64,000 nucleotides of DNA. Origin: Candidatus Collierbacteria bacterium (lineage in GTDB: Bacteria > Patescibacteriota > Microgenomatia > UBA1400 > JACPES01). A program made the translations under genes and the position numbers. Positions 24,832-56,361 of this stretch are shown one piece after another (positions within the stretch are counted from its first letter, which is position 1; every line of letters starts with the position of its first letter). The notes beneath the pieces were generated by a model. It was given only the letters and a program-made list of their open reading frames with translations, made no database searches and was not told the DNA's origin. The stretch covers positions 473,154 through 537,153 of the forward strand of contig JACPES010000003.1 in NCBI GenBank assembly GCA_016183365.1, read 5' to 3'.

Positions 24832-25982
24832 ATATTTTGTTTTTGACGCCGAGAAATTCCAAGAAACATTTGGGGGGGGTGGAGGGGCATGTTAGATTGT
24901 TGACGGAGGAATTGGAGAGAAGGGGGCATGAGGTGAGGGAACTAAGTCTTAGTGATATAGAAGTTAAAGAAAATAAAGATAAAAGAAGATTAGGAAAAGT
25001 GGAGGAAAAGACAAACAAAATTAAAGCGTGGATATATTTATGGAAGAAGAGAGATTTATTTAGGTGGGCGGAAGTGGTGCATATTCATGATGTGTTTTGG
25101 TGGTTATTACCATTTTGGTTTTTAAACAGGCTTGGATTGTTAGACGGCAGTTTTAATTCGTTGAACAAAGTTGCCAAACGCGATACGAATGATACGAATA
25201 GGCATGCGAACGACGCGAATAAAGGCAAGATATACACTACTTTTCACGGGTGGGAGGGGGTTTGTCCGCCGACAAGATCGGCGATTTGGCAGAAAAAATT
25301 GGCGCAGAAGTTGAGTCGGGGGACGATTGGAGTGGGGAGATTTTTTAAGAAGTGGTATGGGGTGGAACAGAATAGAGCGGTATGGGGCGTGGTGGACCCG
25401 CGAATAAGTAAGTTGTGTAAATGCCCGACCTTGCCGCGGCAAGGTCGGGCATTTGCTTTCTTTGGGAGATTGGAGAAGGTGAATGGGGCGGAGGTAGTAG
25501 TGGAGGCAATCAGAAAAATAATAGATCATATTAAGGCCAGGCCTTTCCCGGAAAGGCCTGGCCTTTTCAGATATTTTTTTGTCGGGGATGGGAGTTACAG
25601 GCGTGAGGCGGAAAAATTTGGGAAAGTTACCGGAATGGTGAAGGATCCGGAGAAATATTTGGTAGATGCCGATGTGGTGATTACCAGCTCGTATATGTCA
25701 ATGTTAGAAGCGACAGCTAGGGGCAAGTCGGTTATCGCGGTTGCGAATAATGAGTTAAAAAAGGATTATCTAGACGGACATCCGTTAAGAAAATATATTA
25801 AGGTGGTAAAAAATGCAGATGAATTGATTAGAGTAATTAAAGGACTGTATAAAGGCCCGGCCCTGGATTCCCAGGGCCGGGCCTTAAAAGATTTGAGGTC
25901 TGCTTATCTTTGGGCGTTAAAGCAAACACCGGAAAAGTTAGCCGATGCCTATGAATCTTTATGGAAAATTCCAATTAATTAA
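24828..25982 (+). CDS. GT4-family (GT-B) glycosyltransferase containing four in-frame repeat insertions
   Basis: N-terminus ILFLTPRNSKKHLGGVEGHV and C-terminal FFVGDG..., characteristic of GT-B retaining glycosyltransferases. Confidence 0.6.
   Translation: MNILFLTPRNSKKHLGGVEGHVRLLTEELERRGHEVRELSLSDIEVKENKDKRRLGKVEEKTNKIKAWIYLWKKRDLFRWAEVVHIHDVFWWLLPFWFLNRLGLLDGSFNSLNKVAKRDTNDTNRHANDANKGKIYTTFHGWEGVCPPTRSAIWQKKLAQKLSRGTIGVGRFFKKWYGVEQNRAVWGVVDPRISKLCKCPTLPRQGRAFAFFGRLEKVNGAEVVVEAIRKIIDHIKARPFPERPGLFRYFFVGDGSYRREAEKFGKVTGMVKDPEKYLVDADVVITSSYMSMLEATARGKSVIAVANNELKKDYLDGHPLRKYIKVVKNADELIRVIKGLYKGPALDSQGRALKDLRSAYLWALKQTPEKLADAYESLWKIPIN
25165..25215 (+). repeat. CGAATG-unit tract in frame in the GT4 gene
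   Basis: GCGATACGAATGATACGAATAGGCATGCGAACGACGCGAAT, encoding RDTNDTNRHANDAN. Confidence 0.6.
25419..25454 (+). repeat. Element D: 36-nt GC-rich perfect palindrome, in frame in the GT4 gene
   Basis: AAATGCCCGACCTTGCCG|CGGCAAGGTCGGGCATTT. Confidence 0.8.
25533..25565 (+). repeat. Element D: 33-nt perfect palindrome, in frame in the GT4 gene
   Basis: AAGGCCAGGCCTTTCC-C-GGAAAGGCCTGGCCTT. Confidence 0.8.
25852..25884 (+). repeat. Element D: 33-nt perfect palindrome, in frame in the GT4 gene
   Basis: AAGGCCCGGCCCTGG-ATT-CCCAGGGCCGGGCCTT. Confidence 0.8.
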
Positions 25983-26011
25983 TTGATTAATTAATTGGAA
26001 TTTTTGTAATT

Positions 26012-26902
26012 ATGTTAATTAATAATATTTCAATTAGCGTGGTTGTTACGGTAAAAAATGATGAAGCTGGGGTAAAAAGGCTGCTTGAAGATTTGGATAA
26101 GCAAACGGTAAAGCCGGATGAGGTTATTATTGTTAGGTCAGAGGATTACGGTAATTGTACACGTGGTAGGGGCAGAAATATCGGGATCAGGATGGCGAGA
26201 AATGAATTTATCGCGGTGACTGACGCGGGGTGCAGGCCGAGGAGAGATTGGGTGGAGAGAATAACTGCTGGACTGTATAAAGGCCAGGCCTTCGAGTACA
26301 AAGGCCAGGCCTTATTTGTAGTGGCGGGATGGTATCGAGCGGTGGCAGAAACGCCTTGGCAAAAGGTTTTTTTGCCGTATTTAGTGCCGACAATCAAGAA
26401 GGATAAGAAGGAAAAGAGAGGGAAAGGTAAAACATTCTTACCGGCCAGCCGGTCGATTGCTTTTACCAAAAAAGCCTGGGAATTGGTCGGAGGCTATCCG
26501 GAAGAGCCGGTTTCCGGCGGAGAAGATTTGAAATTTGCCGATAAACTCTGCAATCATACCGGGATTAATATAATTTATTCGCCAAAAGCTGTAGTTGATT
26601 GGCCGGTACCGTCGACTTTAACGGAATTTATTAAAGATATGGTTAAACATACCAGGGGGAATTTTGAGGCCGGATATTGGCCGCATATCGTTCGAAATTT
26701 AAATGTGGTAGCAAGGTGGATGATAATGGTGATTTGGCCGTGGTTGATACCGGTGTATTTGATATGGGGGATTACCCGTCTTCATCAAAAAACGGCGAAG
26801 CGATGGCGGATTAGGGACATTGCGATTAGGGTGGTGGCCGACGCGGCGGTATTTTACGGAACGATAATCGGTATAATTGATGGGTGGGTTATAAGAAAAT
26901 AG
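26012..26902 (+). CDS. GT2-family glycosyltransferase with C-terminal TM segments
   Basis: ISVVVTVKNDEAG...VTDAGCRP (GT-A fold DxD region). Hosts one in-frame palindromic insert (KGQAFEYKGQAL). Confidence 0.6.
   Translation: MLINNISISVVVTVKNDEAGVKRLLEDLDKQTVKPDEVIIVRSEDYGNCTRGRGRNIGIRMARNEFIAVTDAGCRPRRDWVERITAGLYKGQAFEYKGQALFVVAGWYRAVAETPWQKVFLPYLVPTIKKDKKEKRGKGKTFLPASRSIAFTKKAWELVGGYPEEPVSGGEDLKFADKLCNHTGINIIYSPKAVVDWPVPSTLTEFIKDMVKHTRGNFEAGYWPHIVRNLNVVARWMIMVIWPWLIPVYLIWGITRLHQKTAKRWRIRDIAIRVVADAAVFYGTIIGIIDGWVIRK
26280..26312 (+). repeat. Element D (CGAGTACA-loop subtype), in frame in the GT2 gene
   Basis: AAGGCCAGGCCTT-CGAGTAC-AAAGGCCAGGCCTT, encoding KGQAFEYKGQAL. Confidence 0.8.
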
Positions 26903-28092
26903 CGATTACGGGCTTCGGGTGGATGACGGCTTTGCGGATTGCCGGCCGCGGAGTGACCATTGCCAAAACCGCGATTTTAGCCAGAATATTATCTCCGGTT
27001 GATTTCGGGCAATTCGGGGCGGCGGCCTTGAGCTTGTCGTTATTTGAAGTTTTGACCGAAACCGGAGTAAATCAGGCCTTAATTTATTCCTACAAAAAGA
27101 CCGAAGAATTGGTTAATTCGGCTTGGACTGTAGCCATAATCAGAGGGGCGACTATTTCGATCCTGATCGCGTTGTCAGCCTGGCCGGTATCGATATTTTT
27201 CTCCGACAACAATTTAATTAAATTAATTCTACTTCTGGCTCTGGTGCCGTTAATTAAAGGATTTATTAACCCGATGGTGGTCGTATTTGTTAAAGAACTG
27301 CAGTTTGAAAAAGAAGCCATGTTCAGATTTAGCCTGTTGATAATTGAGGGATTGACGGCCGTAATTTCTGCCGTTTTCTTAAAGTCGGCCATGGCTTTCG
27401 CCTTGGCGATGATAATAGCCGGAGCGGCAGAAGTAATTCTTTCGTTTATATATTTTAAAATCAGACCGCGGTTGTCGTTTAGTCGCCAATATTTATCTGA
27501 AATTATGAATTACGGGAAATGGATAACATTGTCGGGAATCGCTTATTGGTTTTCAGCGGAATTAGACGATTTTGTGGCCGGAAAATCTTTCGGGATGAAG
27601 ACATTGGGGATATATCAGGCGGCCTATAAAATTTCGACCCTGCCTGTCACGGAAATAGCTGGATCGGTCAATCAGGTTTCATTTCCGGTGATGTCTAAAT
27701 TAAGAGACGAGAAACAAAAGTTTTGGAAAATTTTTATGGGAAGCATCGGGGTGATCGGGGTGATCGGGGTGATCGGGGGATTGGTTTTATGGATATGGCC
27801 CAGAGAGGTGGTTTTAATTTTATTGGGAGATAAGTGGTTAGGAGCGGTGCCATTAATCAGGATTTTGGCGGTATTTGGTTTGGTCAGATCGATTGAGTCA
27901 GGGATACAACCGGTATTTTTGGCTACAGGTAGGCCAAAAGTAGCCACAATCGGAAATTTAATAAAAGTCGTTACCCTTATTTTCGGACTGTGGCTTTTGG
28001 CTCCGTTGGGAATAGAAGGAATAGCTTGGGCGGCGCTGTTGAGCGGATTGTCGGTAATTCCCTACTATTGGTGGAAATTTAGGGAGATATGA
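26884..28092 (+). CDS. Wzx-like polysaccharide flippase (MOP superfamily)
   Basis: About 12 TM helices, polysaccharide biosynthesis protein N-terminus TALRIAGRGVTIAKTAILARILSP. Contains a GVIGVIGVIG microsatellite. Confidence 0.6.
   Translation: MGYKKIAITGFGWMTALRIAGRGVTIAKTAILARILSPVDFGQFGAAALSLSLFEVLTETGVNQALIYSYKKTEELVNSAWTVAIIRGATISILIALSAWPVSIFFSDNNLIKLILLLALVPLIKGFINPMVVVFVKELQFEKEAMFRFSLLIIEGLTAVISAVFLKSAMAFALAMIIAGAAEVILSFIYFKIRPRLSFSRQYLSEIMNYGKWITLSGIAYWFSAELDDFVAGKSFGMKTLGIYQAAYKISTLPVTEIAGSVNQVSFPVMSKLRDEKQKFWKIFMGSIGVIGVIGVIGGLVLWIWPREVVLILLGDKWLGAVPLIRILAVFGLVRSIESGIQPVFLATGRPKVATIGNLIKVVTLIFGLWLLAPLGIEGIAWAALLSGLSVIPYYWWKFREI
27749..27780 (+). repeat. in-frame (GGGGTGATC)3 microsatellite in the flippase gene
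   Basis: GGGGTGATCGGGGTGATCGGGGTGATCGGGGGA, encoding GVIGVIGVIGG. Confidence 0.8.
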
Positions 28093-29957
28093 GGGTTCTA
28101 TTTTTGTCTCCGGTGCATCCGCTGTTAACTCCGGGAAATCCTTTGCCAAAGTGGCAGATGCAAATGAGTTGGGTTAGAGGTTTAGAGAAGGCAGGGGCGG
28201 AGATAAAAGTGGTCAAGTATACGCCAGGGGACGGGGTTAGGCTTAATTGGGCTGATCGGGTTTGGTGGAATTTGAGGGTGATTAGCGAGATTCAAAAAGC
28301 TAGATTGCCATGGTTCGCTAAGGGCGGGCCTAGCAATGACAGGGGAAAATTTAACTTGATTGTTTATTCGCTGGGGGCAGATGTGCTGTTGCCGCAGACG
28401 GTAAAGTTAATTAAATGGTTGACGGGAACGCCATTGGTGATTTTGTCAGGAGTATCACCTATTCTCAACGGTAATCCGCGGGAAAAGGCTACCGCGAAAT
28501 TGGTGGATTTGGCGGCGGTGAATGACGAAAATCATGCCGAAGAATGGATAAAATTAGGGGCTAAAAAAGCAGTGATTCTGCCGATTTCAGCGATGGATCC
28601 GGAATTGCATTGGAATAGAGGCAAGGAGGATCAGGGGGATAAGAAAGATATTGACGTTTTATTTGTTGGGACTTTGACGGAAGAGCGGAAAAGATTTCTA
28701 AACAATTTACGAAAATTGTTGCCGAAATCGATTAATTTATTGATTAAAGAGTTTGGGTGGGAAGAGGAATACGCTGGATTGATGAGCCGGGCCAAAATTG
28801 CGCTTAATCCGATAAGGTCGGAAATGGCGGGAGGGGCTAATTTAAGAATGTTTGAAATTCCGGCGTTTGGGGCTTTGGAATTGGCGAGTAACGGGAAAAA
28901 GGAATGGTTAATGCCGGGAAAGGAAATGCTGGTGTATAAGGATGCGGAAGAGGCGGTGGGGTTGATTGCTAAATATTTAAAAGATGATAAAAGACGGTTA
29001 GAGATGATAAATAGAGGGATGAGAAGAGTAAAAAGAGAACATACATTTAAGGAGAGAGCAGAAAAGTTGATGGAGTTTATCAAGATGGACTTTAATAGGG
29101 CCTTGCCTTCTGGTACAAAGGCCAGGCTTTTAGTTGATGTGTCAGTTTGTATTGTTAATTATAAAGCAGATAAGGAATTAGAGCGGTGTTTGGCGTCGAT
29201 TTCTCAATTTACCAAAGGAATAAATTTTGAAGTAATCGTGATTGATAATTCGTCAGACAATAGGTGGTATTCAGGTGGGAACAATCTGGCATTAGCGCGG
29301 GCAAAAGGAAGATATGTTTTATTTTTAAATCCGGATTGTTATTTAACTGAAAACGCTTTGGCAAAAATGGTTGGGTGGATGGATAAACATCCCGAGGTTG
29401 GAACTGGTGAGCCGAGGCAGGTTTATGACGATGGTGAAATCGCGCCGACAGGTTCACTTTTGCCGGTATGGTGGGTGGATTTAGTGGAATTAACCGAGTT
29501 AAGCCGGTGGTTCGGGAGCGTGGGGAGAAAGGGCAGGTTGGGTAGACTTGGTAAAATCAGTGAGGTTAGGCAAGAGAATTTAGACAGGCGGAAGAATTGG
29601 CAGACGGAGGTAGTCTCCGGGGCGGCAATGATTGTCAGAAAGAGGATTTTGGACGAGATCGGCGGTTTTGATGAGAAACTTAAACTTTATTACACTGATG
29701 TTGATTTGTGCAGGCGGATTTTGGTGGCGGATTATCAGGTTTGGCATGTGGGGGAGTTTAAACTTGGCCATTCCACCGGAAGAAGCACAGATAAAATAAA
29801 ATGGGATGATCTGTATGATATTTATGCCGGGGATGGGGGAAATTACTATTCTAAATGGGGGAAAGAGTTTGGTGGAAAAATATTATTTTGTGGGATGAAG
29901 GTGAATAAAGCAATATTAAGAATAGGGCATGCGTTGATGACAAAGAAAGTGTTATGA
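28089..29957 (+). CDS. bifunctional glycosyltransferase (CgeB-like GT N-domain plus GT2 C-domain)
   Basis: N-half resembles CgeB/Glyco_trans_1_2 (DVLFVGTL...RKRFL). C-half is GT-A (CIVNYKADKELERCLASI...VIVIDNSSDN...LFLNPDCYL). Confidence 0.55.
   Translation: MRVLFLSPVHPLLTPGNPLPKWQMQMSWVRGLEKAGAEIKVVKYTPGDGVRLNWADRVWWNLRVISEIQKARLPWFAKGGPSNDRGKFNLIVYSLGADVLLPQTVKLIKWLTGTPLVILSGVSPILNGNPREKATAKLVDLAAVNDENHAEEWIKLGAKKAVILPISAMDPELHWNRGKEDQGDKKDIDVLFVGTLTEERKRFLNNLRKLLPKSINLLIKEFGWEEEYAGLMSRAKIALNPIRSEMAGGANLRMFEIPAFGALELASNGKKEWLMPGKEMLVYKDAEEAVGLIAKYLKDDKRRLEMINRGMRRVKREHTFKERAEKLMEFIKMDFNRALPSGTKARLLVDVSVCIVNYKADKELERCLASISQFTKGINFEVIVIDNSSDNRWYSGGNNLALARAKGRYVLFLNPDCYLTENALAKMVGWMDKHPEVGTGEPRQVYDDGEIAPTGSLLPVWWVDLVELTELSRWFGSVGRKGRLGRLGKISEVRQENLDRRKNWQTEVVSGAAMIVRKRILDEIGGFDEKLKLYYTDVDLCRRILVADYQVWHVGEFKLGHSTGRSTDKIKWDDLYDIYAGDGGNYYSKWGKEFGGKILFCGMKVNKAILRIGHALMTKKVL
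29097..29130 (+). repeat. Element D (degenerate CTGGTACA-loop subtype) in the bifunctional GT gene
   Basis: GGGCCTTGCCTT-CTGGTAC-AAAGGCCAGGCTTT. Confidence 0.55.
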
Positions 29958-30712
29958 AATTGACTGCAATAGTTTTGATTGGGCAAAATGACAAGATGAA
30001 AGCTAAACAGGCAATAGATTCTTTGTCGTTTGCGGATGAAATAATTGTAGTTAAGGAAAAATTTCCGATTAATGATTTTGGCGAAGTCAGGAATAGGGCT
30101 TTGGATAGGGCTAAAGGAGAATGGGTGTTGTTTGTGGATAGTGATGAAAAAGTGACGCAACAACTCGCTAGAGAAATCAAGCGAGTTATCAAATTTTCAA
30201 GCCAAGGTTATTTTTTACAGCGACAAGATAAATTTCTTGGTAGGTGGTTGAAGCATGGGGAGACGGCCAGTGTCAAATTGTTGAGATTAGCTAAAAAAAA
30301 TGCCGGCCGATGGGTTAGGCCGGTGCATGAAGTATGGAAGGTTAAGGGCGAAACAGGGGAATTGAAGAATCCCCTATTGCATTATTCTCATGAAGCGGTC
30401 GAAGGGATGGTTGAGAAATTAGACAGATATAGCGGGATGGAGGCGGGGTATAAAAATAGACAAATGGTTAGATGGTTAGAATGGTTAAAATGGCTGAACT
30501 GTATTCGATTAATATCGTTTCCTGTAGGCAAATTCGTCCTTAACTATTTTTTTCGTCTGGGGTTTTTGGACGGGATGGAGGGATTTATCCACGCCGGAAT
30601 GATGAGCGGGCATTCGTTTTTGGTACGAGCGAAGCTCTTAAAGCGGTACGAATCTACCTGCCAGATTTCGCATGGACGAAGTCCAGATGGGCGGGCGAAT
30701 TCATCCGAATGA
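29954..30712 (+). CDS. GT2-family glycosyltransferase (LPS-core-type)
   Basis: LTAIVLIGQNDK...VLFVDSDEKV (DxD). C-terminal 18 aa read through a CGAATG-family repeat. Confidence 0.6.
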   Translation: MKLTAIVLIGQNDKMKAKQAIDSLSFADEIIVVKEKFPINDFGEVRNRALDRAKGEWVLFVDSDEKVTQQLAREIKRVIKFSSQGYFLQRQDKFLGRWLKHGETASVKLLRLAKKNAGRWVRPVHEVWKVKGETGELKNPLLHYSHEAVEGMVEKLDRYSGMEAGYKNRQMVRWLEWLKWLNCIRLISFPVGKFVLNYFFRLGFLDGMEGFIHAGMMSGHSFLVRAKLLKRYESTCQISHGRSPDGRANSSE

Positions 30713-30725
30713 TACGAATAAATAA
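30630..30725 (-). repeat. CGAATG-family element (C type) in inverted orientation, spanning the GT2 3' end and the ligase 5' end
   Basis: Reverse complement ATTCGTATCATTCGGATGAATTCGCCCGCCCATCTGGACTTCGTCCATGCGAAATCTG matches 12570-12630. Confidence 0.7.
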
Positions 30726-31914
30726 ATTGATGGGATTACTATTTTTAGTCGGGTGGGTGGCGGGGCAAATTACCAGATGGCATGGGAGTTTTCCGGTGAC
30801 GATTCTTGATATGGCGGTGGGGGGAATAGTGATTACGGGAGGGATAAAAGGAGTAAAGAGGATTAAAGGGGTAGGTTTGATATTAATAGCGTCGTGGATT
30901 TTAAGTTTGAGATTATTTTCTTTGGAGCAATCTGTTTCGGGAGGGCTTTATCTTTTAAGGTTTTTGGGGTATTTGTGGATCATTGCCAATGCTGATAAAT
31001 TGTTGGCTCCGGTTAAGAAACTGATTGTACCGGCTTTTTGGATTTTCGTGATTTTTGCTTGGATTCAATACTTGTTTTTGCCGGATACCAGATTTTTGCT
31101 TCAATACGGATGGGATGAGCATTATTATCGGATGATCGGAACGGTGCTGGATCCGAATTATTTGGGGGTGATGTTGGGGATGGTGGGGATATATTTAATA
31201 TACAAATATACAAATAGACAAATAGACAAATGGGGGAAAATATTATTGGCGTTTACTTTTGGCGGATTGGCGCTGACTTATTCTAGAGCGAGTTGGATGG
31301 CGGTTTTAGTATCTGGTATCTGGTATATGGTATATGGGTTGAGCCCCAGCACTACGCTTACTTGCTCCCGTGGTTTACATCCACGCGTCGCAAGAGCGCG
31401 AGTGCGGGGTTCGGGCGTACCAACTGATTTTTCTGGAGAAAAATCAGGGTTCGTCCGAAGGGGATTAGGGATATTGGGCATACTGGGTGTAGTTGCAATA
31501 CTCGGAATATGGTTCATGGCGCCAAAACCCGGTGGGGAAGGAATTAATTTATGGAGGACCAGTTCGATTGAGCAGAGAATTGAAAGTTGGCGGGAGGGAA
31601 TAAATGTTTGGCGGGAACATCCGTGGGTTGGAGTGGGATTTAATAACTATGCAGCGGCTAGAGATAAAGTACCAGAAGAAAGAAATCATGCTGAGAACGC
31701 GCCGAGCAGTAGCTGGATTTTGCTATTGGCGACGACGGGGATTATAGGAATGGGTTGGTTAGCGATGGTTGGATGGTTGGCAGTCAGAAATTCAAATAGA
31801 TTGCTGGTGGGGATTTTGGTGATGATCGGAATTCACTCAATTTTGAATAATACCATTTTTTATCCACCAATTTTGGGTTTATTAGCTATGATTAAGGTTG
31901 CCAACGCAGAGTAA
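30709..31914 (+). CDS. O-antigen ligase/polymerase-like (Wzy_C domain) membrane protein with in-frame Element A insertion
   Basis: Multi-TM protein with Wzy_C hallmark LALTYSRASWMAVLV and a periplasmic loop. Confidence 0.55.
   Translation: MIRINKLMGLLFLVGWVAGQITRWHGSFPVTILDMAVGGIVITGGIKGVKRIKGVGLILIASWILSLRLFSLEQSVSGGLYLLRFLGYLWIIANADKLLAPVKKLIVPAFWIFVIFAWIQYLFLPDTRFLLQYGWDEHYYRMIGTVLDPNYLGVMLGMVGIYLIYKYTNRQIDKWGKILLAFTFGGLALTYSRASWMAVLVSGIWYMVYGLSPSTTLTCSRGLHPRVARARVRGSGVPTDFSGEKSGFVRRGLGILGILGVVAILGIWFMAPKPGGEGINLWRTSSIEQRIESWREGINVWREHPWVGVGFNNYAAARDKVPEERNHAENAPSSSWILLLATTGIIGMGWLAMVGWLAVRNSNRLLVGILVMIGIHSILNNTIFYPPILGLLAMIKVANAE
31345..31462 (+). repeat. Element A copy 3 (subfamily 2), in frame inside the O-antigen-ligase-like gene
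   Basis: AGCACTACGCTTAC...CGCGAGTGCGGGGTTCGGGCGTACCAACTGATTTTTCTGGAGAAAAATCAGGGTTCGTCCGAAG. Translated as ...RVRGSGVPTDFSGEKSGFVRRG. Confidence 0.75.
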
Positions 31915-34519: not shown

Positions 34520-34545
34520 GAGGGAAGTCTGACTTCCCCATTTTA
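34520..34545 (+). terminator. rho-independent terminator-like hairpin after tRNA-Gly
   Basis: GGGAAGTC-T-GACTTCCC stem followed by ATTTT. Confidence 0.4.
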
Positions 34546-34756
34546 CTGTATATAATTTATAAAAACGTTAGACGTTTCAATTTTTATAAAAGATCGTAAG
34601 CATTGGAATAAGTTAGTAGAAAAACTTCGGGCAGAAGGAAGTGAATCGGCGACAAAATGTCACGGTTTGAAAATGTTGGTTGTTGACGGAAAAGCGTGTA
34701 GATTGGCAATGCTATAGCATAGTCAATCTACAATAAATTAATCTAAAGATAGATAT

Positions 34757-35368
34757 TTATTTAGGCAGGGAGAGCTTTGTGCCGGAGATGAGCAGGTTTG
34801 GGTTACGGCCGATTTTGGCCTTGTTTAGTTGATAAATTTTAACCCATTGATAGCCATCTCCGTAAACATTAACAGCGATTTTCCAAAGTGAATCATTGGA
34901 TTTAACAATATATTCTGATTCAGGTTGAATTTTAGTTTCAGCCGCCGTAATTTCCACTTTTATTTCTTTACCATCCATTACGGTTTGTTTTTTGGGCATG
35001 GTATCAGGGATAATCAATTTTTGGCCTGTTTCAATTAAATTTGCATTTTTTATTTTATTGGCGGCAGAGATATCCACCCAATTATAACCCGACTTAAAAT
35101 ACTTTTCAGAGATTGACCATAATGTTTCTCCGGATTGAACTTCATGGACATTGGTTGCAGAAGTAGCGCCGTTTACCCGATTTAAGTCTTCAGTTTTTAT
35201 TTCAGAAATGTCAACATCGTTTTGAGGAAGTTGAGTTGAGGGCTTGCTCTTGAAATAATTGAATAAAAGGCTGCCGATGGTGATTACAACGGCTACTCCC
35301 ATCAAAGTGGAAATTAAAGATTCGTTGGATCTTATATTTTTAAGGAGAGATTTAATTTTTTGTTCCAT
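34757..35368 (-). CDS. LysM-domain peptidoglycan-binding protein (two LysM repeats, N-terminal TM)
   Basis: Two copies of the LysM pattern (HEVQSGETLWSISEKY...GQKLIIP and YIVKSNDSLWKIAVNVYGDG...GTKLSLP). Confidence 0.75.
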   Translation of the reverse strand: MEQKIKSLLKNIRSNESLISTLMGVAVVITIGSLLFNYFKSKPSTQLPQNDVDISEIKTEDLNRVNGATSATNVHEVQSGETLWSISEKYFKSGYNWVDISAANKIKNANLIETGQKLIIPDTMPKKQTVMDGKEIKVEITAAETKIQPESEYIVKSNDSLWKIAVNVYGDGYQWVKIYQLNKAKIGRNPNLLISGTKLSLPK

Positions 35369-35453
35369 AATGAAAGTAGGTACTTTCGCTGACGAAACTA
35401 ACTACTTTCGGATAGTAAATAATACGAAGGTAAATGTCAAGAGGGGAAATTTG

Positions 35454-35527
35454 CGGGGCCGACGGGATTCGAACCCGCGACCTCCTGCGTGACAGGCAGG
35501 CGCTCTAACCAACTGAGCTACGACCCC
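35454..35527 (-). tRNA. tRNA-Asp (anticodon GUC)
   Basis: Reverse complement GGGGTCGTAGCTCAGTTGGTTAGAGCGCCTGCCTGTCACGCAGGAGGTCGCGGGTTCGAATCCCGTCGGCCCCG. Anticodon loop CTGTCAC. Confidence 0.85.
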
Positions 35528-35571
35528 ACATTTACAGTTTATGATACCATTTTTGGGAGGAGAAGAAGCTT

Positions 35572-37374
35572 ATGGTAGCGGTTTCTAACAATCAATCTAT
35601 CGCCAAAATGCTGTTTGAGGTGGCGGCGGTTTTGGAAGTGACCGGAGGCGACCGATTCAGAATTCGGGCTTATCGGGAAGCGGCCAACTCGATCGAGACT
35701 TATCCGGTCGAAGTCCGTGATTTGTGGGAGCACAGGAATTTAGGAGATGTGGCCGGAGTAGGAAAAGCTATGGCCGGTTATTTGGATGAATTTTTTAGGA
35801 CCGGAAAGGTAAAACATTTTGATTCTATTAAAAAGAAAGTCCCGGCCGGAATGTTTCCTTTGCTTAATGTGAGTGAGATCGGGCCTAAGACGGCTTTTGT
35901 CCTTTCTAAAGAGCTGGGGTTAGTTAAGGCCCAAATTGCGATTGATAAGCTTAAAAGAGCTGCTACGGACGGTGAGATAGCCAAGATTGAAGGCTTCGGG
36001 GAAGAATCTCAAGCAAAGATTTTATCCGCTATCAAGGAAGCCGAGTCGAGAGAAAATAAGATACTTTTACCTGTGGCCCAAGAGTTGGCAGATAAAGTTA
36101 TTGGCTATCTCCAAAAACAGCCCGGGATTATTAAAGTCGAGGCTTTGGGTAGTTTGAGAAGAAAATCTGCTTTAGTCGGAGATATAGATATAGGCGTTGC
36201 CGTTTCAAACCCGAAAGCAATCGCGGAAAGTTTTATCAAATTTCCTGAATTTATCAAGATATTGGCAACCGGAGACAAAGTTTGCCGGGCGATTCACCGC
36301 ACCGGACGGCAAGTTGACTTAAAAATTGAGCCGTTGGAAAGTTTTGGTTCTATGTTGCAACATTTTACGGGGAGTAAGGAACATAATATTGCTTTGAGGG
36401 AGTACGCGCTGAAAAAAGGTTACTCGTTGTCGGAGCATGGGGTTAGAGAACAGAAAGCAGAGAACAGAGAACAGGAATCAGGAAACAAGAAACAGGGAAT
36501 AAGAAGGTTCGGAACGGAAGAAGAATTTTATAAAGCCCTCGGCATGCCGTGGATTCCGCCGGAATTGCGGGAAAATCGCGGAGAGATTGAAGTCGGCTTA
36601 TCAGGCAAACTTCCAAAGTTGCTGGAATTATTAGATATCAAAGGCGATTTTCATACCCATTCTGATTTTGATATTGAAACCAGCCATGATACCGGAGCTT
36701 CAGGTTTAATTGATCTGGTAAATACTGCTAAAAGATTGGGATACGAATACATCGCTGTATCTGATCACAATCCGTCTACTTCAAATCACAATCATAATCA
36801 AATAATAGACCTTATAAAGCGGAGAAATGATTATATTGATAAATTTATTTCATCTCATGAAATGGATGTGAAAATAAAAATATTTAAATCCCTCGAAATA
36901 GATATATCCGGCGATGGATCAATCGCTATTCCAGATTCGGCATTGGAGCTTTTGGATTTTGGCATAATTTCAATTCACAGTCAGTTTGTTGCCGACGAGA
37001 GCAAGCAAACGGCCAGAATTTTAAGAGCTCTTTCACATCCTAAAGTCAAAATACTGGGCCATCCGACTGGCAGGCAGCTCTTAAAACGGAACGGAATCAA
37101 TTGCGATTGGGATAAAATATTTGATTTTTGCTCCCAAAAAAATATTTGGTTGGAAGCTAACGGAAATCCGTTTAGAATGGATTTGCCGGATCAATTAATC
37201 CAGAAGGCAAAGAATTTTGGGGTTAAATTTACTTTGGGTACAGACAGCCATAATTTCAGTCAGATGGAGTATATGCCGTCCGGAGTTTCGTTGGCAAGAA
37301 GGGGATGGCTTGAGAAGAAAGACGTGATAAACTGTTTGGAATATAATGAAGTAAAAGAAAAGTTAAAAGGCTGA
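35572..37374 (+). CDS. polX: DNA polymerase X family with C-terminal PHP phosphoesterase domain
   Basis: HhH motifs, nucleotidyltransferase motif GSLRRKSALVGDIDIGV, PHP motif FHTHSDFD. A 20-aa Q/E/K/N-rich microsatellite insert sits between the domains. Confidence 0.8.
   Translation: MVAVSNNQSIAKMLFEVAAVLEVTGGDRFRIRAYREAANSIETYPVEVRDLWEHRNLGDVAGVGKAMAGYLDEFFRTGKVKHFDSIKKKVPAGMFPLLNVSEIGPKTAFVLSKELGLVKAQIAIDKLKRAATDGEIAKIEGFGEESQAKILSAIKEAESRENKILLPVAQELADKVIGYLQKQPGIIKVEALGSLRRKSALVGDIDIGVAVSNPKAIAESFIKFPEFIKILATGDKVCRAIHRTGRQVDLKIEPLESFGSMLQHFTGSKEHNIALREYALKKGYSLSEHGVREQKAENREQESGNKKQGIRRFGTEEEFYKALGMPWIPPELRENRGEIEVGLSGKLPKLLELLDIKGDFHTHSDFDIETSHDTGASGLIDLVNTAKRLGYEYIAVSDHNPSTSNHNHNQIIDLIKRRNDYIDKFISSHEMDVKIKIFKSLEIDISGDGSIAIPDSALELLDFGIISIHSQFVADESKQTARILRALSHPKVKILGHPTGRQLLKRNGINCDWDKIFDFCSQKNIWLEANGNPFRMDLPDQLIQKAKNFGVKFTLGTDSHNFSQMEYMPSGVSLARRGWLEKKDVINCLEYNEVKEKLKG
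36440..36500 (+). repeat. in-frame GAACAGA/GAAACAAGAAACAG purine-rich repeat tract in polX
   Basis: GAACAGAAAGCAGAGAACAGAGAACAGGAATCAGGAAACAAGAAACAGGG. Confidence 0.65.
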
Positions 37375-37420
37375 AAGGTTAAAAAGGTTGAAAAGGTTAG
37401 AAAGGTTGAAAGAGAGGCGG
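37370..37420 (+). repeat. intergenic (AAAGGTTGAAA)n tract between polX and lemA; a related copy lies at 59375-59405
   Basis: GGCTGAAAGGTTAAAAAGGTTGAAAAGGTTAGAAAGGTTGAAAGAG. Confidence 0.6.
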
Positions 37421-37430
37421 TGATAATTTT

Positions 37431-38018
37431 ATGAATTTAACAGTAATTTTAATAGCCTTAGCAGTAATAGCTTTAGGCTACATAGTTTCCACATATAATT
37501 CGTTTCAGACGATTAAAACCAGAATTAAAGCCAGCATTCAGGAGATTGGCAATCAGTTGAAAAGACAGACGGATTTAATTCCAAATCTGGAAACCAGTGT
37601 TAAGGGATACCTGAAACACGAGAAGTCGATTTTTGACAAACTGACTGATGCCCGGAAATCCGTGTCGGAAGCGGTGAAAACCGGTAATTTAAATAACGCC
37701 CAAGACGCGGCCGGAAAGCTGACCCAATTGATTCCGGCATTGCAGGTTTTGGTTGAGAGTAACCCGGAACTTAAGGCGAATACGACTGTCGCCAGTTTGA
37801 TGGATGAACTAAGGGATACTTCCGACAAAGTGATGTATTCTAGACGGACATTAATTGATTTAACGGCTGATTACAACCAAATGCTGGTGACTTTCCCCTC
37901 CAATATGGTTGGTAATTTATTCGGGATGAAGCAAGAAAAGGGCTTGGAGATGCCGGAAAGCGGAGAATTTTTGAAGGTGTCGGCAGATGAGACAAAGAGC
38001 CCGAAAGTGGAACTGTAA
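37431..38018 (+). CDS. lemA: LemA family protein
   Basis: N-terminal TM helix plus YNSFQTIKTRIKASIQEIGNQLKRQTDLIPNL, the LemA signature. Confidence 0.8.
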   Translation: MNLTVILIALAVIALGYIVSTYNSFQTIKTRIKASIQEIGNQLKRQTDLIPNLETSVKGYLKHEKSIFDKLTDARKSVSEAVKTGNLNNAQDAAGKLTQLIPALQVLVESNPELKANTTVASLMDELRDTSDKVMYSRRTLIDLTADYNQMLVTFPSNMVGNLFGMKQEKGLEMPESGEFLKVSADETKSPKVEL

Positions 38019-38020
38019 TA

Positions 38021-38107
38021 GCGATCCGAATGATTCTAATAATCATCCGAATGTTCCGAATAGAAGAAATTCGGATAATTCGAATGTCATTCGTGGATTT
38101 GGATCGC
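38021..38107 (+). repeat. CGAATG-family element (B type) in the lemA-htpX spacer
   Basis: GCGATCCGAATGATTCTAATAATCATCCGAATGTTCCGAATAGAAGAAATTCGGATAATTCGAATGTCATTCGTGGATTTGGATCGC, co-linear with the 3233-3317 copy. Confidence 0.8.
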
Positions 38108-38115
38108 GTTGATGT

Positions 38116-39072
38116 ATGACCAATGTCTATGAACAAGTTGACGCGAACAAGCGAAAAAGTGCCTTGGTAGTGGTGCTTTTTTCGATAGTAACAGCTGTGT
38201 CCGTTTATTTTATCTCCTTAGGATTAAGTTATTATTTAGGGAATTTGTCCCGCGGAGCAGGATCTGGCTTCTCCAGAGGAGGATTTGGGGTATTTGGTTT
38301 CGCATTGATAATTTCCGGTCTAGCCAGTTTTGCCGGGTATTGGTTTAGCGATAAGATTGTGTTGGGAATTTCCGGAGCCAGACCGGCTGACCGGAAACGT
38401 GACTTTCTTTTTTATACCGTGGCAGAAAACATGAGTTTGGTAGCTCAAGTTCCGATGCCGAAACTCTATGTGATCGACGATACTGCTCCAAATGCTTTTG
38501 CCACCGGCCGTGACCCCCAGCACGCGGTAATATGCGCTACTAGCGGAATTTTAGTGAAACTCAATCGAACTGAATTGGAGGGTGTGATTGCTCACGAAAT
38601 GTCGCACGTTCAAAATTACGATACCAGATTAATGTCGGTTGTTTCCGTTTTGGTCGGGACAGTAGTGCTTCTGGGAGATCTTTTTATCCGAGCCAGTTGG
38701 TGGGGGGGAAGGGGCCGGAGCGATCGTGAAGATCGGGGGACGGGAGCAGTTTTCATTGTCATCGGGCTAATTTTTGCGATTCTGTCTCCGATTGTAGCCC
38801 AGTTAATTCAGTTGGCTATCAGCCGCAAAAGGGAGCTATTGGCCGACGCGTCTGCGGTGAAACTGACCCGCCAACCAGAGGGATTGTTAAAAGCTTTGGT
38901 GAAAATTTCCGCGGATCGGGAACCTTTGGAAGCGGCCAATAAGGCAACGGCGCATTTGTATATCATGAACCCGTTGAAAAATCGGCATGACGCGGTGGGA
39001 TGGTTCGCGGGGTTGTTTAATACCCATCCTCCGTTAGCGGAGAGGGTTAAACAACTGAAAGCGATGACGTAG
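38116..39072 (+). CDS. htpX: HtpX-family M48 zinc metalloprotease
   Basis: HEMSHVQNYD (HExxH) and downstream Glu, 4 TM segments. Conserved LemA-HtpX pairing. Confidence 0.8.
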   Translation: MTNVYEQVDANKRKSALVVVLFSIVTAVSVYFISLGLSYYLGNLSRGAGSGFSRGGFGVFGFALIISGLASFAGYWFSDKIVLGISGARPADRKRDFLFYTVAENMSLVAQVPMPKLYVIDDTAPNAFATGRDPQHAVICATSGILVKLNRTELEGVIAHEMSHVQNYDTRLMSVVSVLVGTVVLLGDLFIRASWWGGRGRSDREDRGTGAVFIVIGLIFAILSPIVAQLIQLAISRKRELLADASAVKLTRQPEGLLKALVKISADREPLEAANKATAHLYIMNPLKNRHDAVGWFAGLFNTHPPLAERVKQLKAMT

Positions 39073-39106
39073 ATAGAAAAAGATGAATTGGTGATATCAT
39101 AGCTTC

Positions 39107-40744
39107 ATGGGTTCTTCGATAACAAAACAACAAGTTCAGCACGTGGCGAAACTGGCCAATCTTCAACTTTCTGAAGAAGAATTAGAGCTTTACACCAAGC
39201 AGATTAAGGATATCGTAGGTTATGTCGAGCAACTTGATAAGGTTAAAGTCGACGGAGTGAAACCGACTTATCAGACGTTAGATGGTATGGTTAATGTTTG
39301 GCGGGAAGATGAAGTCGGGATGAGTTTGAGCCAGAATGAAGCGTTGTCGCAAGCTAAAAGAATTGTGGATGGGTATTTTGTAGCCGCTCCAGCACTACGT
39401 TTGCCACTCCCCCTGATCAAATCGGGACGTCGTGGTGTCGCGAGTGCGGAATTCGGGCGTACCAGCGAATTTTTTCAGAGCAAGAATTCGGGTCTGTCCG
39501 AAAATAAATATAACGCGATTTTGACGGAGGTGGATGAAAAGGGAGCGGTTGGGCATAAGGATTTGTTTTTGACAAAGGGGGTCAGAAGCAGCGCAGGATC
39601 AAATGTCTTGCGGGAATATTTGCCGCAATATTCTTCAACCGTAGTTGAACTTTTGGAGAAAGCCGGATTTAAGACAAAATATAAGTTGAATTGCGACGCT
39701 TGGGCCCATGGCAGTAGCGGAGAAAATTCTGATTTTGGGTCGACAAAAAATCCGTGGAATGAGGAATTTACTCCCGGCGGGTCGTCCAGCGGGTCGGCCG
39801 CGGCGGTAGCCGCCGGACTGGTGGATGTCGCCACCGGCACCGATACCGGCGGGTCGATTCGGCTGCCGGCCAGTTTTTGCAACTTGGTGGGATTAAAGTC
39901 GACTTACGGGGCATTGAGCCGGTATGGAATTGTGGCGATGGCGTCGAGTTTGGATTCACCGGGAGTAATTGGGAAATCAGTTAGAGAGGTGAAGAAAGTT
40001 TTCAAAGTGATGGCGGGGAAGGATGAAAGGGATGCGACCAGTCTGGATAGTGTAAAAAGGCCCGGCCTTGTTTTAACAAGGCCGGGCATTATCAGAATTG
40101 GAATTCCAAAGGAATATTTTGATAAAGGGATTGATTTGGAAGTTAGACAAGCGGTCATGACAGCGGTTAAAATTTTGGAGAAGAACGGGTTTAAGATTCA
40201 GGAAATTTCTTTACCGAATTCAAAATACGGAATCGCGGTTTATTACTTGGTCCAAACCACCGAAGTTTCCAGCAATTTAGGCCGATACGATGGTATTCGG
40301 TATGGTTTCGGGCGAGAAAGTTTCGGGGCCGAGGCGAAGCGGCGAATTATGCTGGGGACATTTGCCTCGTCGGCCGGATATTCCGCCAAGTTTTTTGAGA
40401 AAGCCGCTAAGGTGAGAACCTTGATAATTCAGGATTTTGAAAAGGCGTTTAATTCGTCGGCTGACGGAGTGGACGTGATTTTAGGGCCGGTGTCGTCGAC
40501 ACCGCCGTTTAAATTGGGAGAAAAAGCCAATGATCCTTTAACCATGTATTTGTCGGATATTTTGACGGTGTCGGTGAATTTGGCCGGATTGCCGGCGTTG
40601 GCGTTGCCTTGCGGTTTTTCGAAACATAACTTACCGATCGGAATGCAGTTGATAGGGCCACGGTGGTCGGAAAATTTATTGTTTGACGTTGGTGAAGTTT
40701 ATCAAAGTTTGACCAAGTGGCACACCAAAAAGCCACAGGTTTAA
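39107..40744 (+). CDS. gatCA: Glu/Asp-tRNA amidotransferase subunits C and A, translationally fused through an Element A repeat copy
   Basis: Residues 1-95 are GatC (QVQHVAKLANLQLSEEELELYTKQ...). Residues ~130-545 are GatA with the amidase signature GGSSSGSAAAVAAGLVDVATGTDTGGSIRLPA. The frame is continuous across the repeat at ~39392-39505. Confidence 0.75.
   Translation: MGSSITKQQVQHVAKLANLQLSEEELELYTKQIKDIVGYVEQLDKVKVDGVKPTYQTLDGMVNVWREDEVGMSLSQNEALSQAKRIVDGYFVAAPALRLPLPLIKSGRRGVASAEFGRTSEFFQSKNSGLSENKYNAILTEVDEKGAVGHKDLFLTKGVRSSAGSNVLREYLPQYSSTVVELLEKAGFKTKYKLNCDAWAHGSSGENSDFGSTKNPWNEEFTPGGSSSGSAAAVAAGLVDVATGTDTGGSIRLPASFCNLVGLKSTYGALSRYGIVAMASSLDSPGVIGKSVREVKKVFKVMAGKDERDATSLDSVKRPGLVLTRPGIIRIGIPKEYFDKGIDLEVRQAVMTAVKILEKNGFKIQEISLPNSKYGIAVYYLVQTTEVSSNLGRYDGIRYGFGRESFGAEAKRRIMLGTFASSAGYSAKFFEKAAKVRTLIIQDFEKAFNSSADGVDVILGPVSSTPPFKLGEKANDPLTMYLSDILTVSVNLAGLPALALPCGFSKHNLPIGMQLIGPRWSENLLFDVGEVYQSLTKWHTKKPQV
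39392..39505 (+). repeat. Element A copy 4 (subfamily 2), bridging gatC and gatA in frame
   Basis: AGCACTACGTTTGCC...CGCGAGTGCGGAATTCGGGCGTACCAGCGAATTTTTTCAGAGCAAGAATTCGGGTCTGTCCGAAAA. Translated as ...AEFGRTSEFFQSKNSGLSENK. Confidence 0.8.
40057..40090 (+). repeat. Element D copy, in frame in the gatA portion
   Basis: AAGGCCCGGCCTTGTT-TT-AACAAGGCCGGGCATT. Confidence 0.75.
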
Positions 40745-40786
40745 ATTGCTAACAATGAAACAATATAACAATTCAGCAATATATTT

Positions 40787-42172
40787 ATGACCGGAAGTTT
40801 TAACTATATCCCCATCATTGGCCTAGAAATACACGTCGAGTTGAAGTCGAATTCCAAGATGTTTTGCGGATGCAGAAATGATCCGTTCGGAGCTTCAAAA
40901 CCTAATATTTATACTTGTCCTGTTTGCTTGGGATTGCCGGGAGCTCTGCCGGTACCGAATAAGAAAGCGATTGAATCAACCGTAAAATTAGGCTTAGGTT
41001 TGGGTTGTGAAATAAATAGAGAATCGCGGTTTGACCGGAAACATTATTTTTATCCCGATTTGCCGAAAGGATATCAGATTAGCCAATACGAGAGGCCATT
41101 CGCGACGAATGGAAGGTTACAGGTTACAGGTTACAGGTTAGAAAAGAAAACAGTAAGAATACGGAGGGTGCATTTGGAGGAGGATACGGGGAAATTGTTA
41201 CATCGAAAAATAAACGGCGAGGAAGTTTCATTGATTGACTTTAATCGATCGGGAGTTCCACTTGTCGAAATTGTGACTGAACCGGATATTAGGTCAGCTG
41301 AAGAAGCCAAAGAAACTGCCAAAAAAATTCACCGGATTGTCAGATCTTTGGAAGTTTCCGATGCGGATATGGAGAAGGGGTCAATGAGACTAGAGGCGAA
41401 TATTAGTATGTTTAAAGGCCTGGCCTTCGAGTACAAAGGCCAGGCCTTACCGAACTATAAGGTGGAGATCAAGAATATAAATTCATTCCGGTTTTTGGAG
41501 AGAGCGATTGAAGAAGAGATTGAGAGGCAGAGGAAAATTTTGGAATCAGGAAAAGAAGTTAAGCAGGAGACCAGAGGCTGGGATACTCAATCTATGACTT
41601 CTAAATCCCAAAGGACTAAAGAAGAAGCCGCGGATTACCGGTATTTTCCGGAACCGGATATCCCGCCGATTTCTTTGTCAGATGATTGGATATCAAAAAT
41701 CAAAACTCAAATCTCGAAACTTCCGGAAGAAATATATGAAGAATTGATTAGAGCCGGAGTGGCGGAACAAGCCGCAAGGATAATTTCGGCGAATAAAGAT
41801 TTGGCAGCAAAGGTACAAGAAAGTACAATAAAGTACAATAAAGTACAAAAAGATGAGGAATTAGAGGCAAAAGAAATCGGAAATTTTGGGAACTGGGTAC
41901 TGCATCATCAGCTGGAAGTCAGGGAAAAGCCGGCAGAGGAACTGATCTATTTATTTAAGCAAGGGAAAGAGGGGATAGTTTCCGATTCGGAGCAGCTTGA
42001 GGGATGGGTTTTGGGAGTAATCGAAGATAATCCTCGAGCGGTGGCTGATTTTAAGGCCGGAAAACAGCAGGCGATTGGATTTTTGATTGGACAAGTCCAA
42101 CGTTTGGCAGGGGGTAAGGCGGATGTCAAAAAAGTTAAAGAAATTTTGCTAGAAAAAATTACGAATAAATAA
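40787..42172 (+). CDS. gatB: Glu/Asp-tRNA amidotransferase subunit B
   Basis: IIGLEIHVELKSNSKMFCGC N-terminus, GatB/YqeY C-terminal domain. Contains three in-frame repeat inserts. Confidence 0.85.
   Translation: MTGSFNYIPIIGLEIHVELKSNSKMFCGCRNDPFGASKPNIYTCPVCLGLPGALPVPNKKAIESTVKLGLGLGCEINRESRFDRKHYFYPDLPKGYQISQYERPFATNGRLQVTGYRLEKKTVRIRRVHLEEDTGKLLHRKINGEEVSLIDFNRSGVPLVEIVTEPDIRSAEEAKETAKKIHRIVRSLEVSDADMEKGSMRLEANISMFKGLAFEYKGQALPNYKVEIKNINSFRFLERAIEEEIERQRKILESGKEVKQETRGWDTQSMTSKSQRTKEEAADYRYFPEPDIPPISLSDDWISKIKTQISKLPEEIYEELIRAGVAEQAARIISANKDLAAKVQESTIKYNKVQKDEELEAKEIGNFGNWVLHHQLEVREKPAEELIYLFKQGKEGIVSDSEQLEGWVLGVIEDNPRAVADFKAGKQQAIGFLIGQVQRLAGGKADVKKVKEILLEKITNK
41111..41140 (+). repeat. 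in-frame (AGGTTAC)4 microsatellite in gatB
   Basis: GGTTACAGGTTACAGGTTACAGGTTA, encoding LQVTGYRL. Confidence 0.8.
41414..41447 (+). repeat. Element D (CGAGTACA-loop subtype), in frame in gatB
   Basis: AAGGCCTGGCCTT-CGAGTAC-AAAGGCCAGGCCTT, encoding KGLAFEYKGQAL. Nearly identical to the copy at 26280. Confidence 0.85.
41812..41852 (+). repeat. in-frame (AAAGTACAAT)n microsatellite in gatB
   Basis: AAGGTACAAGAAAGTACAATAAAGTACAATAAAGTACAAAAAG. Confidence 0.8.

Positions 42173-56121: not shown

Positions 56122-56361
<240 letters not shown>

Follow-up and report, generated by a model that had tools for sequence, protein, structure and literature searches.

What are the short GC-rich palindromes that lie in frame within unrelated genes of a candidate phyla radiation (CPR) bacterium, and how do they come to persist there? 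The DNA in question is a 64,000-nt stretch of Candidatus Collierbacteria (CPR/Microgenomates, Patescibacteria), referred to here as the window, in which a first-pass annotation made from the letters alone had singled out seven copies. All seven were found where it had placed them, each within a long open reading frame (ORF) that stays open through the copy, and three of them share a single GT4-family glycosyltransferase gene. They are best described as REP/REPIN-like elements (REP, repetitive extragenic palindrome; REPIN, REP doublet forming a hairpin), that is, non-autonomous hairpin doublets with AAGG-N5-CCTT arms (here N5 is CCNGG) on either side of a short variable loop. We consider it probable that they represent a CPR variant of the REPIN-RAYT system (RAYT, REP-associated tyrosine transposase), whose copies survive for the most part as in-frame additions to protein loops.

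Five of the seven copies are canonical, with two 13-nt arms (AAGGCCNGGCCTT; AAGG-CCNGG-CCTT) separated by a 7-8-nt loop, while one is diverged with compensated arms and one is decaying (Table 1). The motif GGCCNGGCC occurs nine times in the window against 0.79 expected, a count reached in 0 of 100 shuffles, and the half-site AAGGCCNGGCCTT is found 18 times with up to two mismatches (2.8 expected; no shuffle reached 18), 14 of these matches being the arm pairs of the seven copies. Cores measure 34 nt in six copies and 33 nt in one, and the start-to-start spacing is irregular (113, 319, 428, 2817, 10960, and 1358 nt). The copies are indeed GC-rich relative to their surroundings (56-66% versus a regional 38-44%). 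Their description as perfect palindromes holds for those at 25420, 25533, 25852, and 41415, whereas the other three carry the mismatches or departures listed in Table 1, and the common AAGGCC-type form proposed for all of them fits the canonical copies but not 25420. That copy differs from the GGTC-type arms of a related locus (L103) by two compensated double changes, which place it in the family; its slot is likewise filled in the related Candidatus Collierbacteria genome JACRNH01 (copy at 7416 of JACRNH010000003.1, or c3). The arms of 25852 contain one compensated change (CCCT / AGGG). Predicted folding energies range from -20 to -36 kcal/mol for RNA and from -12 to -22 kcal/mol for DNA (z = -4 to -9), with the exception of 29097, which folds no better than shuffles (RNA -15, DNA -7 kcal/mol; z = -1.4). 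In an Rfam scan of the window, six tRNAs alone reached the gathering score, and the hairpins matched no RNA family. Copies 26280 and 41415 are near-identical, as had been noted, sharing 33 of 34 positions including the loop although they sit in unrelated genes.

What ties these hairpins to a mobile system is a Y1 transposase gene, missed by the first-pass annotation, which the same hairpins border in related genomes. At a JACRNH01 locus syntenic with the window (L081), a 234-aa ORF lies between two family hairpins that are 740 bp apart, and it matches Pfam Y1_Tnp with 29.8 bits (cut-off 23). In 14 homologues, its HUH motif (NHFHFL) and Tyr motif (RYIHRN) do not vary, and a profile of these homologues finds the ISDra2 TnpA in the PDB with both motifs aligned; we classify the protein as a putative IS200-like HUH/Tyr (Y1), RAYT-type transposase. 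The hairpins abut the gene, one lying 36 nt before the start codon and the other overlapping the stop codon, and their outer flanks are inverted (GCCACAA / TTGTGGC). We counted 73 occurrences of the gene-flanking 13-mer in the JACRNH01 DNA examined. A tblastn search of the palindrome-bearing loci, informative because these had been chosen for the palindrome and not for a transposase gene, uncovered 15 further homologues (32-90% identity), at least 11 of which have AAGG-N5-CCTT hairpins within ~20-60 nt, on one flank or on both. The arm interiors of these hairpins vary by lineage: CCNGG in Collierbacteria, Daviesbacteria, Parcubacteria, and a Bdellovibrionales bin, TTACA/TGTAA at three loci (L185, L213, and L062), and CACTT/AAGTG in Gottesmanbacteria (L046). 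The transposase family comprises at least 4,900 proteins; among the matches listed, all carry PF01797 and those with a name are mostly from Patescibacteria, many of them on ~1-kb contigs. One homologue is named 'REP element-mobilizing transposase RayT' by JGI. The arrangement of transposase and hairpins corresponds to a REPtron architecture (PMC3116915, PMC3337134, PMC5581495), and by analogy with such systems the Y1 transposase probably mobilises the hairpin elements.

The elements are widespread. Scanning one genome per species with the exact pattern, we found them at 94 genome loci, mostly of Collier-, Davies-, Gottesman-, and Woykebacteria, Parcubacteria, and Saccharibacteria. The richest genomes are JACRNH01 (21 loci, ~40 copies; 40 copies in the 189 kb examined), a Daviesbacteria genome, an unclassified bin, and a Bdellovibrionales bin, together with genomes of the Gottesman- and Woykebacteria, Parcubacteria, and Saccharibacteria. 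At least 120 metagenome loci carry elements as well, and none was found in 2.9 million viral contigs. In the literature library searched, we found no report of intragenic palindromes or such elements in CPR bacteria.

The closest known system is the REP/REPIN-RAYT pairs, or REPtrons, of Proteobacteria (PMC3116915, PMC3337134, PMC5581495, PMC3733652). Like REPs and REPINs, the elements are GC-rich palindromes of 20-40 nt that fold into a hairpin as inverted doublets and are dispersed in many copies per genome, and they persist for long, their stems being conserved and their loops variable. As in REPtrons, the repeats border a small HUH/Tyr transposase gene in inverted orientation (here in related genomes), and lineage-specific repeat variants track the transposase. 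They differ from REPs in their arm motif, AAGG-N5-CCTT, from REPINs in their very compact doublet (13-nt arms, 0-12-nt spacer), from extragenic REPs in that 57-85% of copies lie in genes (seven of seven in the window), and from other REP hosts in residing in a CPR bacterium with ~90% coding density.

For the in-frame survival of such elements, the closest precedent is provided by intragenic REPs and by Rickettsia palindromic elements (RPEs; PMC3733652, PMC1779305), so that the principle as such is already known. RPEs, too, are found in frame in a reduced genome, across many genes that are unrelated and in some cases essential, and add a peptide on the protein surface for which a function at the protein level is apparently not required. 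The descriptions of RPEs nevertheless set them apart: their hosts are alphaproteobacteria (Rickettsia) and not Candidatus Collierbacteria, RPE-1 spans 100-150 bp against cores of 33-37 nt here, RPE-4 and RPE-6 carry a CGTC tag that our elements do not have, and the sequences are probably unrelated. RPEs are also the subject of Ogata et al. 2000 and Claverie & Ogata 2003, and we know of no dedicated transposase for them.

IS200/IS605 transposases recognise hairpins in single-stranded DNA and insert without target duplication. The putative transposase described above belongs to the same HUH and Tyr superfamily as these insertion sequences and their gene-less derivatives (palindrome-associated transposable elements, PATEs; ISDra2 TnpA structures 2XM3/2XMA), and here likewise no consistent target duplication was found; in contrast to our single symmetric doublet with its weak flank signal, the hairpins at the left and right ends of IS200/IS605 elements are distinct from each other, and the target is a defined sequence of 4-5 nt. 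The mobile GC clusters of fungal mitochondria (for example yeast GC42, PMC4478555) are similar in being sporadic, ~30-45-nt GC-rich hairpins in an AT-richer genome, with stems that change far less than loops and with gain, loss, and merger of copies. The fungal clusters, which are organellar, mostly intergenic, and accompanied by an AG target-site duplication and by no known transposase, serve as an analogy only.

How do the copies survive within genes? Each arm is free of stop codons in all six frames, since it reads AAG GCC NGG CCT T, A AGG CCN GGC CTT, or AA GGC CNG GCC TT and is self-complementary. The window arms are indeed read in all three frames, and the 39 intragenic copies in Collierbacteria DNA divide 19:14:6 among them. 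By crude ORF-based gene calls, a caveat for these numbers, 39 of 46 copies in Collierbacteria DNA lie within genes (85%; coding density 92%), as do 102 of 136 at the metagenome loci (75%; coding density 86%) and 62 of 108 at the genome loci (57%; coding density 87%). We detected no gene, frame, or strand preference, the intragenic share staying below coding density in all three data sets, and the frame and strand bias previously suggested is not borne out. Where the elements land, or where they persist, is close to random or slightly in favour of intergenic positions, and their in-frame state would reflect a selection filter acting in a ~90% coding genome. Two further points of the first-pass annotation lose their meaning on inspection: whether a length is divisible by three depends on the boundaries chosen for cores of 33 or 34 nt, and a position on the sense strand says nothing about a palindrome, both strands of which read almost alike.

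At the protein level, the inserts appear, in structural models, to occupy surface loops between secondary-structure elements. In the AlphaFold2 (AF2) model of GatB, the insert forms a coil between strands 200-211 and 226-231 with a predicted local distance difference test score (pLDDT) of ~61, compared with 88-92 in the neighbouring blocks, and the loop exceeds that of solved GatB structures by 6 aa; GatA shows no net gain in length over its solved structures at the insert. The GT4 inserts fall in modelled loops 197-207, 238-247 (copy 25533), and 342-345, with a dip in pLDDT at each. Homologues of the GT4 protein from the Collierbacteria clade (341-408 aa) contain five to six hypervariable slots in the family alignment, filled by palindrome peptides (KGPAL..QGRAL, KGQAFEYKGQAL, KGPTL..QGRTL) or by repeat peptides (NRQIDK, YKDYK, TNDTN), and all of these variable segments are absent from distant homologues (45% identity or less, 315-337 aa), relative to which the copies are insertions. 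For the window GatB and GT4 proteins, 100% identical Candidatus Collierbacteria entries encoded on a 588-kb contig exist at NCBI, and an exact-protein look-up of the window flippase found no record.

Comparison of orthologous sites indicates how the elements change after they have been acquired. JACRNH01 contig 3 is syntenic with the window from 18.5 to 48.8 kb, and within this region only two sites are shared, both in the GT4 gene and both differing in central N, loop, and length; about seven are lineage-specific, and two copies exist only in JACRNH01. One of the shared sites is that of 25852, where the orthologous slot holds a 37-nt copy with another central N and another loop. Comparison with orthologues that lack an insert, proposed earlier as a check, was informative, since the JACRNH01 orthologue lacks copy 25533, a clean insertion of 33 nt, and distant GT4 homologues do without the slots. 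At the 26280, gatA, and gatB sites, JACRNH01 has other simple repeats instead of hairpins (at 26280, a AAGGTACAA repeat). The gatA and gatB copies are common to the window and a relative (L106) whose gatA/gatB DNA is 26% diverged overall and 53% at fourfold-degenerate sites; both arms of 40057 are intact in L106, the slot holding other repeats in further relatives, and the gatB copy is also present in L105. The conclusion of recent mobility previously drawn from the near-identity of 26280 and 41415 is right in pointing to a dispersed, mobile-type family, and overstated as to recency.

Over 134 orthologous-site comparisons, 58 have exact arms on both sides, 14 have variant arms, and 62 show other repeats or an empty site. 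In the 58 exact-arm pairs, the 40-nt flanks are 28% diverged, and 27 pairs have a different N pair; only 8 share the same loop, while the loop is flipped in 2, diverged in 26 (by 38%), and of unequal length in 22. The arms, by comparison, retain their symmetry. Their central N is complementary in 98 of 111 exact copies and identical in 12 of the other 13, while the same 111 copies carry about 90 different loops. When we searched for compensation without requiring pairing (166 matches versus 3 in shuffled DNA), positions at which both partners are off consensus were complementary in 43 cases and not in 3, representing ~10 independent variants, with AAGG and CCTT at both arm ends as the constant parts; the AAGG that had been proposed as a target site is this conserved arm end. 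Mismatches confined to a single arm were G:T in 20 cases and other in 62. Finally, between L103 and L104, which are ~91% identical across the GT4 gene, a 24-nt deletion leaves one solo arm, showing that the arms act as direct repeats in slippage; the earlier suggestion that the hairpins are recombination substrates is supported in this instance.

Together, we propose the following course of events for a CPR REPIN-RAYT system. The transposase would recognise the hairpin on single-stranded DNA, as IS200/IS605 and RAYT enzymes do, cut at or near the hairpin foot, and either copy the doublet or move it, in both cases with no duplication of the target. As the genomes are ~90% coding, most landing sites are genes. 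Selection would then keep those events that add a multiple of three bases, are free of stop codons, and fall in surface loops, and would remove copies that shift the frame, bring in a stop codon, or disturb the fold. After insertion, loops would change fast while arms stay complementary, and, because each arm by itself is close to a palindrome, the pair also forms direct repeats, which may slip to leave a solo arm.

Several observations weigh against this proposal. The sole NCBIfam match of the L081 protein, to REP-associated tyrosine transposase (REP_Tyr_transpos), reaches 24 bits against a cut-off of 80; unlike RAYTs, the protein thus passes the Pfam Y1_Tnp threshold and falls below the NCBIfam RAYT one, and its family profile aligns best with ISDra2 TnpA and did not find E. 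coli TnpA-REP in the PDB. Searching the PDB with the single L081 sequence gave no match to a solved structure, and no Y1 transposase is present within the 64-kb window. The flank logo of 250 copies is without the GTAG/CGTC tag of REPs and contains a weak signal at most (T at -6 in 58%, besides positions rich in A/T; commonest hexamer TCAATA), nor do these flanks show a consistent target-site duplication; GTGG occurs only in the transposase-adjacent subfamily, 2 nt from the hairpin foot (TTGTGGC). Core lengths across the family span 32-38 nt and are not multiples of three, and so do not define one inserted unit. All-against-all BLAST of 228 loci yielded the L103/L104 pair only, and no clean filled-versus-empty pair among near-identical strains. 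The diversity of loops is not expected from one self-pasting master copy, and, with a perfect consensus in only two of the seven window copies, the family is possibly decaying or inactive in this genome. Moreover, the gatA and gatB arms differ between the window and L106 by one change in 52 nt against the 26% background. An empirical test put the chance of such conservation at ~1.4% for the copy with 26/26 arm positions unchanged and at ~5.5% for the one with 25/26; it replaced a simple binomial test (p = 3e-6), which was dropped because identity between the two genomes is patchy. Conservation of arms at orthologous sites would fit a host function as well.

The hairpins might accordingly be kept by the host for what they do as nucleic acids, be it ribosome pausing on the mRNA at domain boundaries, RNase sites, or bulk DNA signals resembling gyrase-REP or uptake sequences, and would then lie in genes only since intergenic space is almost absent. 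We consider this quite unlikely as the primary explanation. Arms at orthologous sites are conserved far beyond the surrounding coding DNA, and the compensated changes described above as well as the stability of the predicted RNA hairpins point in the same direction; the single-arm mismatches, however, are mostly not of the G:U kind. The position of the inserts between secondary-structure elements also counts in its favour, but the copies show no specificity for gene, frame, or position, and decaying ones (29097, and the mismatched 26280 and 40057) are tolerated. REPIN-RAYT systems have been argued to persist vertically for millions of years (PMC8049555, PMC5581495), which we count in favour of a host function; set against it is the fast turnover in presence and absence, with sister lineages holding unrelated palindromes or tandem repeats in the same slots.

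Alternatively, no transposase-driven movement may be involved, and the palindromes may arise and be renewed locally at fragile, permissive slots, for instance by replication template switching, by cleavage of hairpin tips with error-prone repair (a PolX gene lies nearby), or by short-patch recombination between strains. The hypervariability of the slots, in which a large variety of unrelated short palindromes and tandem repeats is found, is what this would predict, as is the finding that orthologous loops differ in sequence and length and are in some cases flipped. Identity in 12 of the 13 non-complementary central-N pairs would be expected from arm duplication, and the GT4 genes of relatives look mosaic. 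Yet local renewal cannot account for why one 13-nt arm consensus recurs across several candidate phyla, why near-identical copies sit in unrelated genes at 26280 and 41415, and why a Y1 transposase gene is repeatedly bracketed by the same hairpins, whose arm interiors co-vary, and we regard it as very unlikely.

That the copies are assembly, adapter, or chimera artefacts, which the first-pass annotation had named as a way to refute its finding, has a negligible probability: some library and assembly errors can make palindromes, but the gatB insert recurs in the NCBI genome, in six Logan assemblies from different runs (contigs of the same strain with identical gene lengths), and in one ENA and one JGI contig with ordinary divergence between relatives, ORFs remain open through every copy, and hundreds of copies exist in independent genome bins and metagenomes. 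Further candidates were rejected. GGCC outside the elements is only slightly depleted (observed-to-expected ratio 0.79), not beyond what other 4-mer palindromes show, which speaks against restriction-site avoidance or a decoy. The scan of 2.9 million viral contigs, with its zero matches, speaks against a phage origin and, together with the irregular spacing, against CRISPR repeats and the protospacers that had been suggested. A miniature inverted-repeat transposable element (MITE) derived from a DDE transposon does not agree with a whole element that is one hairpin, with the lack of a consistent duplication at 250 copies, or with the absence of a DDE transposase from the window, and a parS- or dif-like site was dropped in view of copies spread over many contigs and genes.

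The REPIN-RAYT-type interpretation has consequences beyond this locus. REP/REPIN-RAYT systems have been described as extragenic and mainly proteobacterial; the same architecture in ultra-small CPR genomes with next to no intergenic space, where most copies lie in frame within genes, shows the fate of REPIN-type elements where intergenic refuges are missing. It also offers a concrete possible source for many unexplained low-complexity loop insertions in CPR proteins, insertions that make proteins look longer, disrupt profile matches, and mislead alignments. Assemblies, too, may be broken by the elements, as suggested by the many transposase homologues on ~1-kb contigs, and the transposase-hairpin pair with its co-varying arm interiors is tractable for biochemistry. 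A bolder version, which we regard as rather unlikely, would have such hairpins moved wholesale from intergenic to coding DNA in CPR bacteria and, along with the other slot repeats, acting as a main generator of lineage-specific surface-loop insertions in conserved or essential proteins (GatA, GatB, MurD, IleRS, DnaE-neighbour genes), the arms at orthologous sites being kept because they have become useful to the host as single-stranded DNA or mRNA structures, and not through tolerance alone.

Table 1 Positions of hairpin copies, their host genes, and further repeats within the window
Feature	Position	Strand	Details
Diverged copy, GT4 slot 3	25420-25453		peptide KCPTLPRQGRAF; arms AATGCCCGACCTT / AAGGTCGGGCATT; loop GCCGCGGC; palindrome extends 25417-25456
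Canonical copy, GT4 slot 4	25533-25565		perfect, 33 nt; peptide KARPFPERPGL; frame 1
Canonical copy, GT4 slot 5	25852-25885		peptide KGPALDSQGRAL; stem extends 25850-25887
Canonical copy, GT2	26280-26313		peptide KGQAFEYKGQAL; loop CGAGTACA; A:A mismatch at arm centre
Decaying copy, GT1_2/GT2 fusion gene	29097-29130		peptide RALPSGTKARL; three departures from consensus
Canonical copy, gatC-gatA	40057-40090		peptide RPGLVLTRPGI; frame 2; one arm mismatch (GCATT)
Canonical copy, gatB	41415-41448		peptide KGLAFEYKGQAL; loop CGAGTACA
GT4-family glycosyltransferase gene	24828-25982	+	three copies; Pfam PF13439, PF13692
GT2-family glycosyltransferase gene	26012-26902	+	Pfam PF00535
Glyco_trans_1_2 + GT2 fusion gene	28089-29957	+	Pfam PF13524, PF00535
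gatC-gatA fusion gene	39107-40744	+	Pfam GatC + Amidase
gatB	40787-42172	+	Pfam GatB_N + GatB_Yqey
CGATTTTTTCCGGAGAAAAAAATCG family	7323-7444, 15616-15737, 31342-31463, 39439-39504		66-122 nt, internal hairpin
CGAATGATNCGAAT-type repeat	3227-3276, 12521-12570, 13832-13856, 25174-25223, 30697-30721, 38015-38064		tandem-like; TNDTN / PNDPN
ACAAATAGACAAATAG repeat	30449-30475, 31199-31233		encodes (T)NRQIDK
AAAGTACAAT-type tandem repeat	41816-41863		in gatB; encodes KVQESTIKYNKVQKD
GC-rich palindrome TCCCACTCCGCCAGCTGGCGGAGTGGAA	10104-10131		in murG-like ORF 9417-10526
AT-rich 40-nt palindrome	25965-26004		perfect; 19-bp arms (AAAATTCCAATTAATTAATTGATTAATTAATTGGAATTTT)

The slots and genes that hold the hairpins contain other repeats as well. 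A second family, with an internal hairpin (CGATTTTTTCCGGAGAAAAAAATCG), lies in frame in four plus-strand ORFs, namely those of a MurD-like ligase, IleRS, an O-antigen-ligase-like gene, and the gatC-gatA linker, and peptides like those it encodes (..GFGRTSDFF..KSG..) appear in slots of the GatB and GT4 proteins of relatives. The linker copy is 66 nt long. Here, gatC and gatA are fused into a single 545-aa ORF, as they are in the JACRNH01 relative (530 aa), and a stop-free repeat insertion may possibly have bridged the two genes. The CGAATGATNCGAAT-type repeat is placed at gene ends, at gene starts, and in GT4 slot 2, with one copy providing the first codons of a PD-(D/E)XK (PDDEXK_3) nuclease gene (13834-14274). 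The ACAAATAGACAAATAG repeat lies in frame in several window genes and fills GT4, GT-fusion, and other slots of relatives, including the GT4 gene of JACRNH010000003.1 (7511-7570).

In gatB, a peptide near-identical to that of the AAAGTACAAT-type repeat is found in the O-antigen-ligase-like gene of JACRNH01, and the hairpin loop of 26280 and 41415 (CGAGTACA plus AAGG) resembles this repeat. The gatB slot of JACRNH01 (L101, 10622-10660) holds a (GGAAAA)5 hexanucleotide repeat and its gatA slot (L101) a purine-rich, AAGG-containing stretch, each near the window hairpin insert in length. Another widespread palindromic repeat (..GAGATTGCCGCGC..TCGCTCGCAATGAC..), with peptides such as IATSRRRVEARNDK and ARSEATWQSR, fills the same slots in gatA of L107, in L133 (orthologue of L018 6187), and in three GatB homologues (P0022, P0023, and P0026). 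As the same slots hold other palindromes in relatives, several unrelated repeat families appear to compete for permissive sites.

Two further palindromes were observed in the window. The core of the one in the murG-like ORF, CCGCCAGCTGGCGG, equals the inner part of some AAGG...CCTT hairpins at metagenome loci (L224, L178), which hints at chimeric or merged palindromes, and the AT-rich one runs across the GT4 stop codon and the GT4-GT2 spacer. Outside the region with the hairpins (1-21600 and 55381-61350), no transposase or integrase was seen and the window is ordinary core genome, comprising a division and cell wall (dcw) cluster (murC/B/A-like, mraY, murD, ftsW, murG, ftsA, ftsZ) together with ileS, parB, a signal peptidase gene, the ATP synthase operon, ruvC, and six tRNAs.

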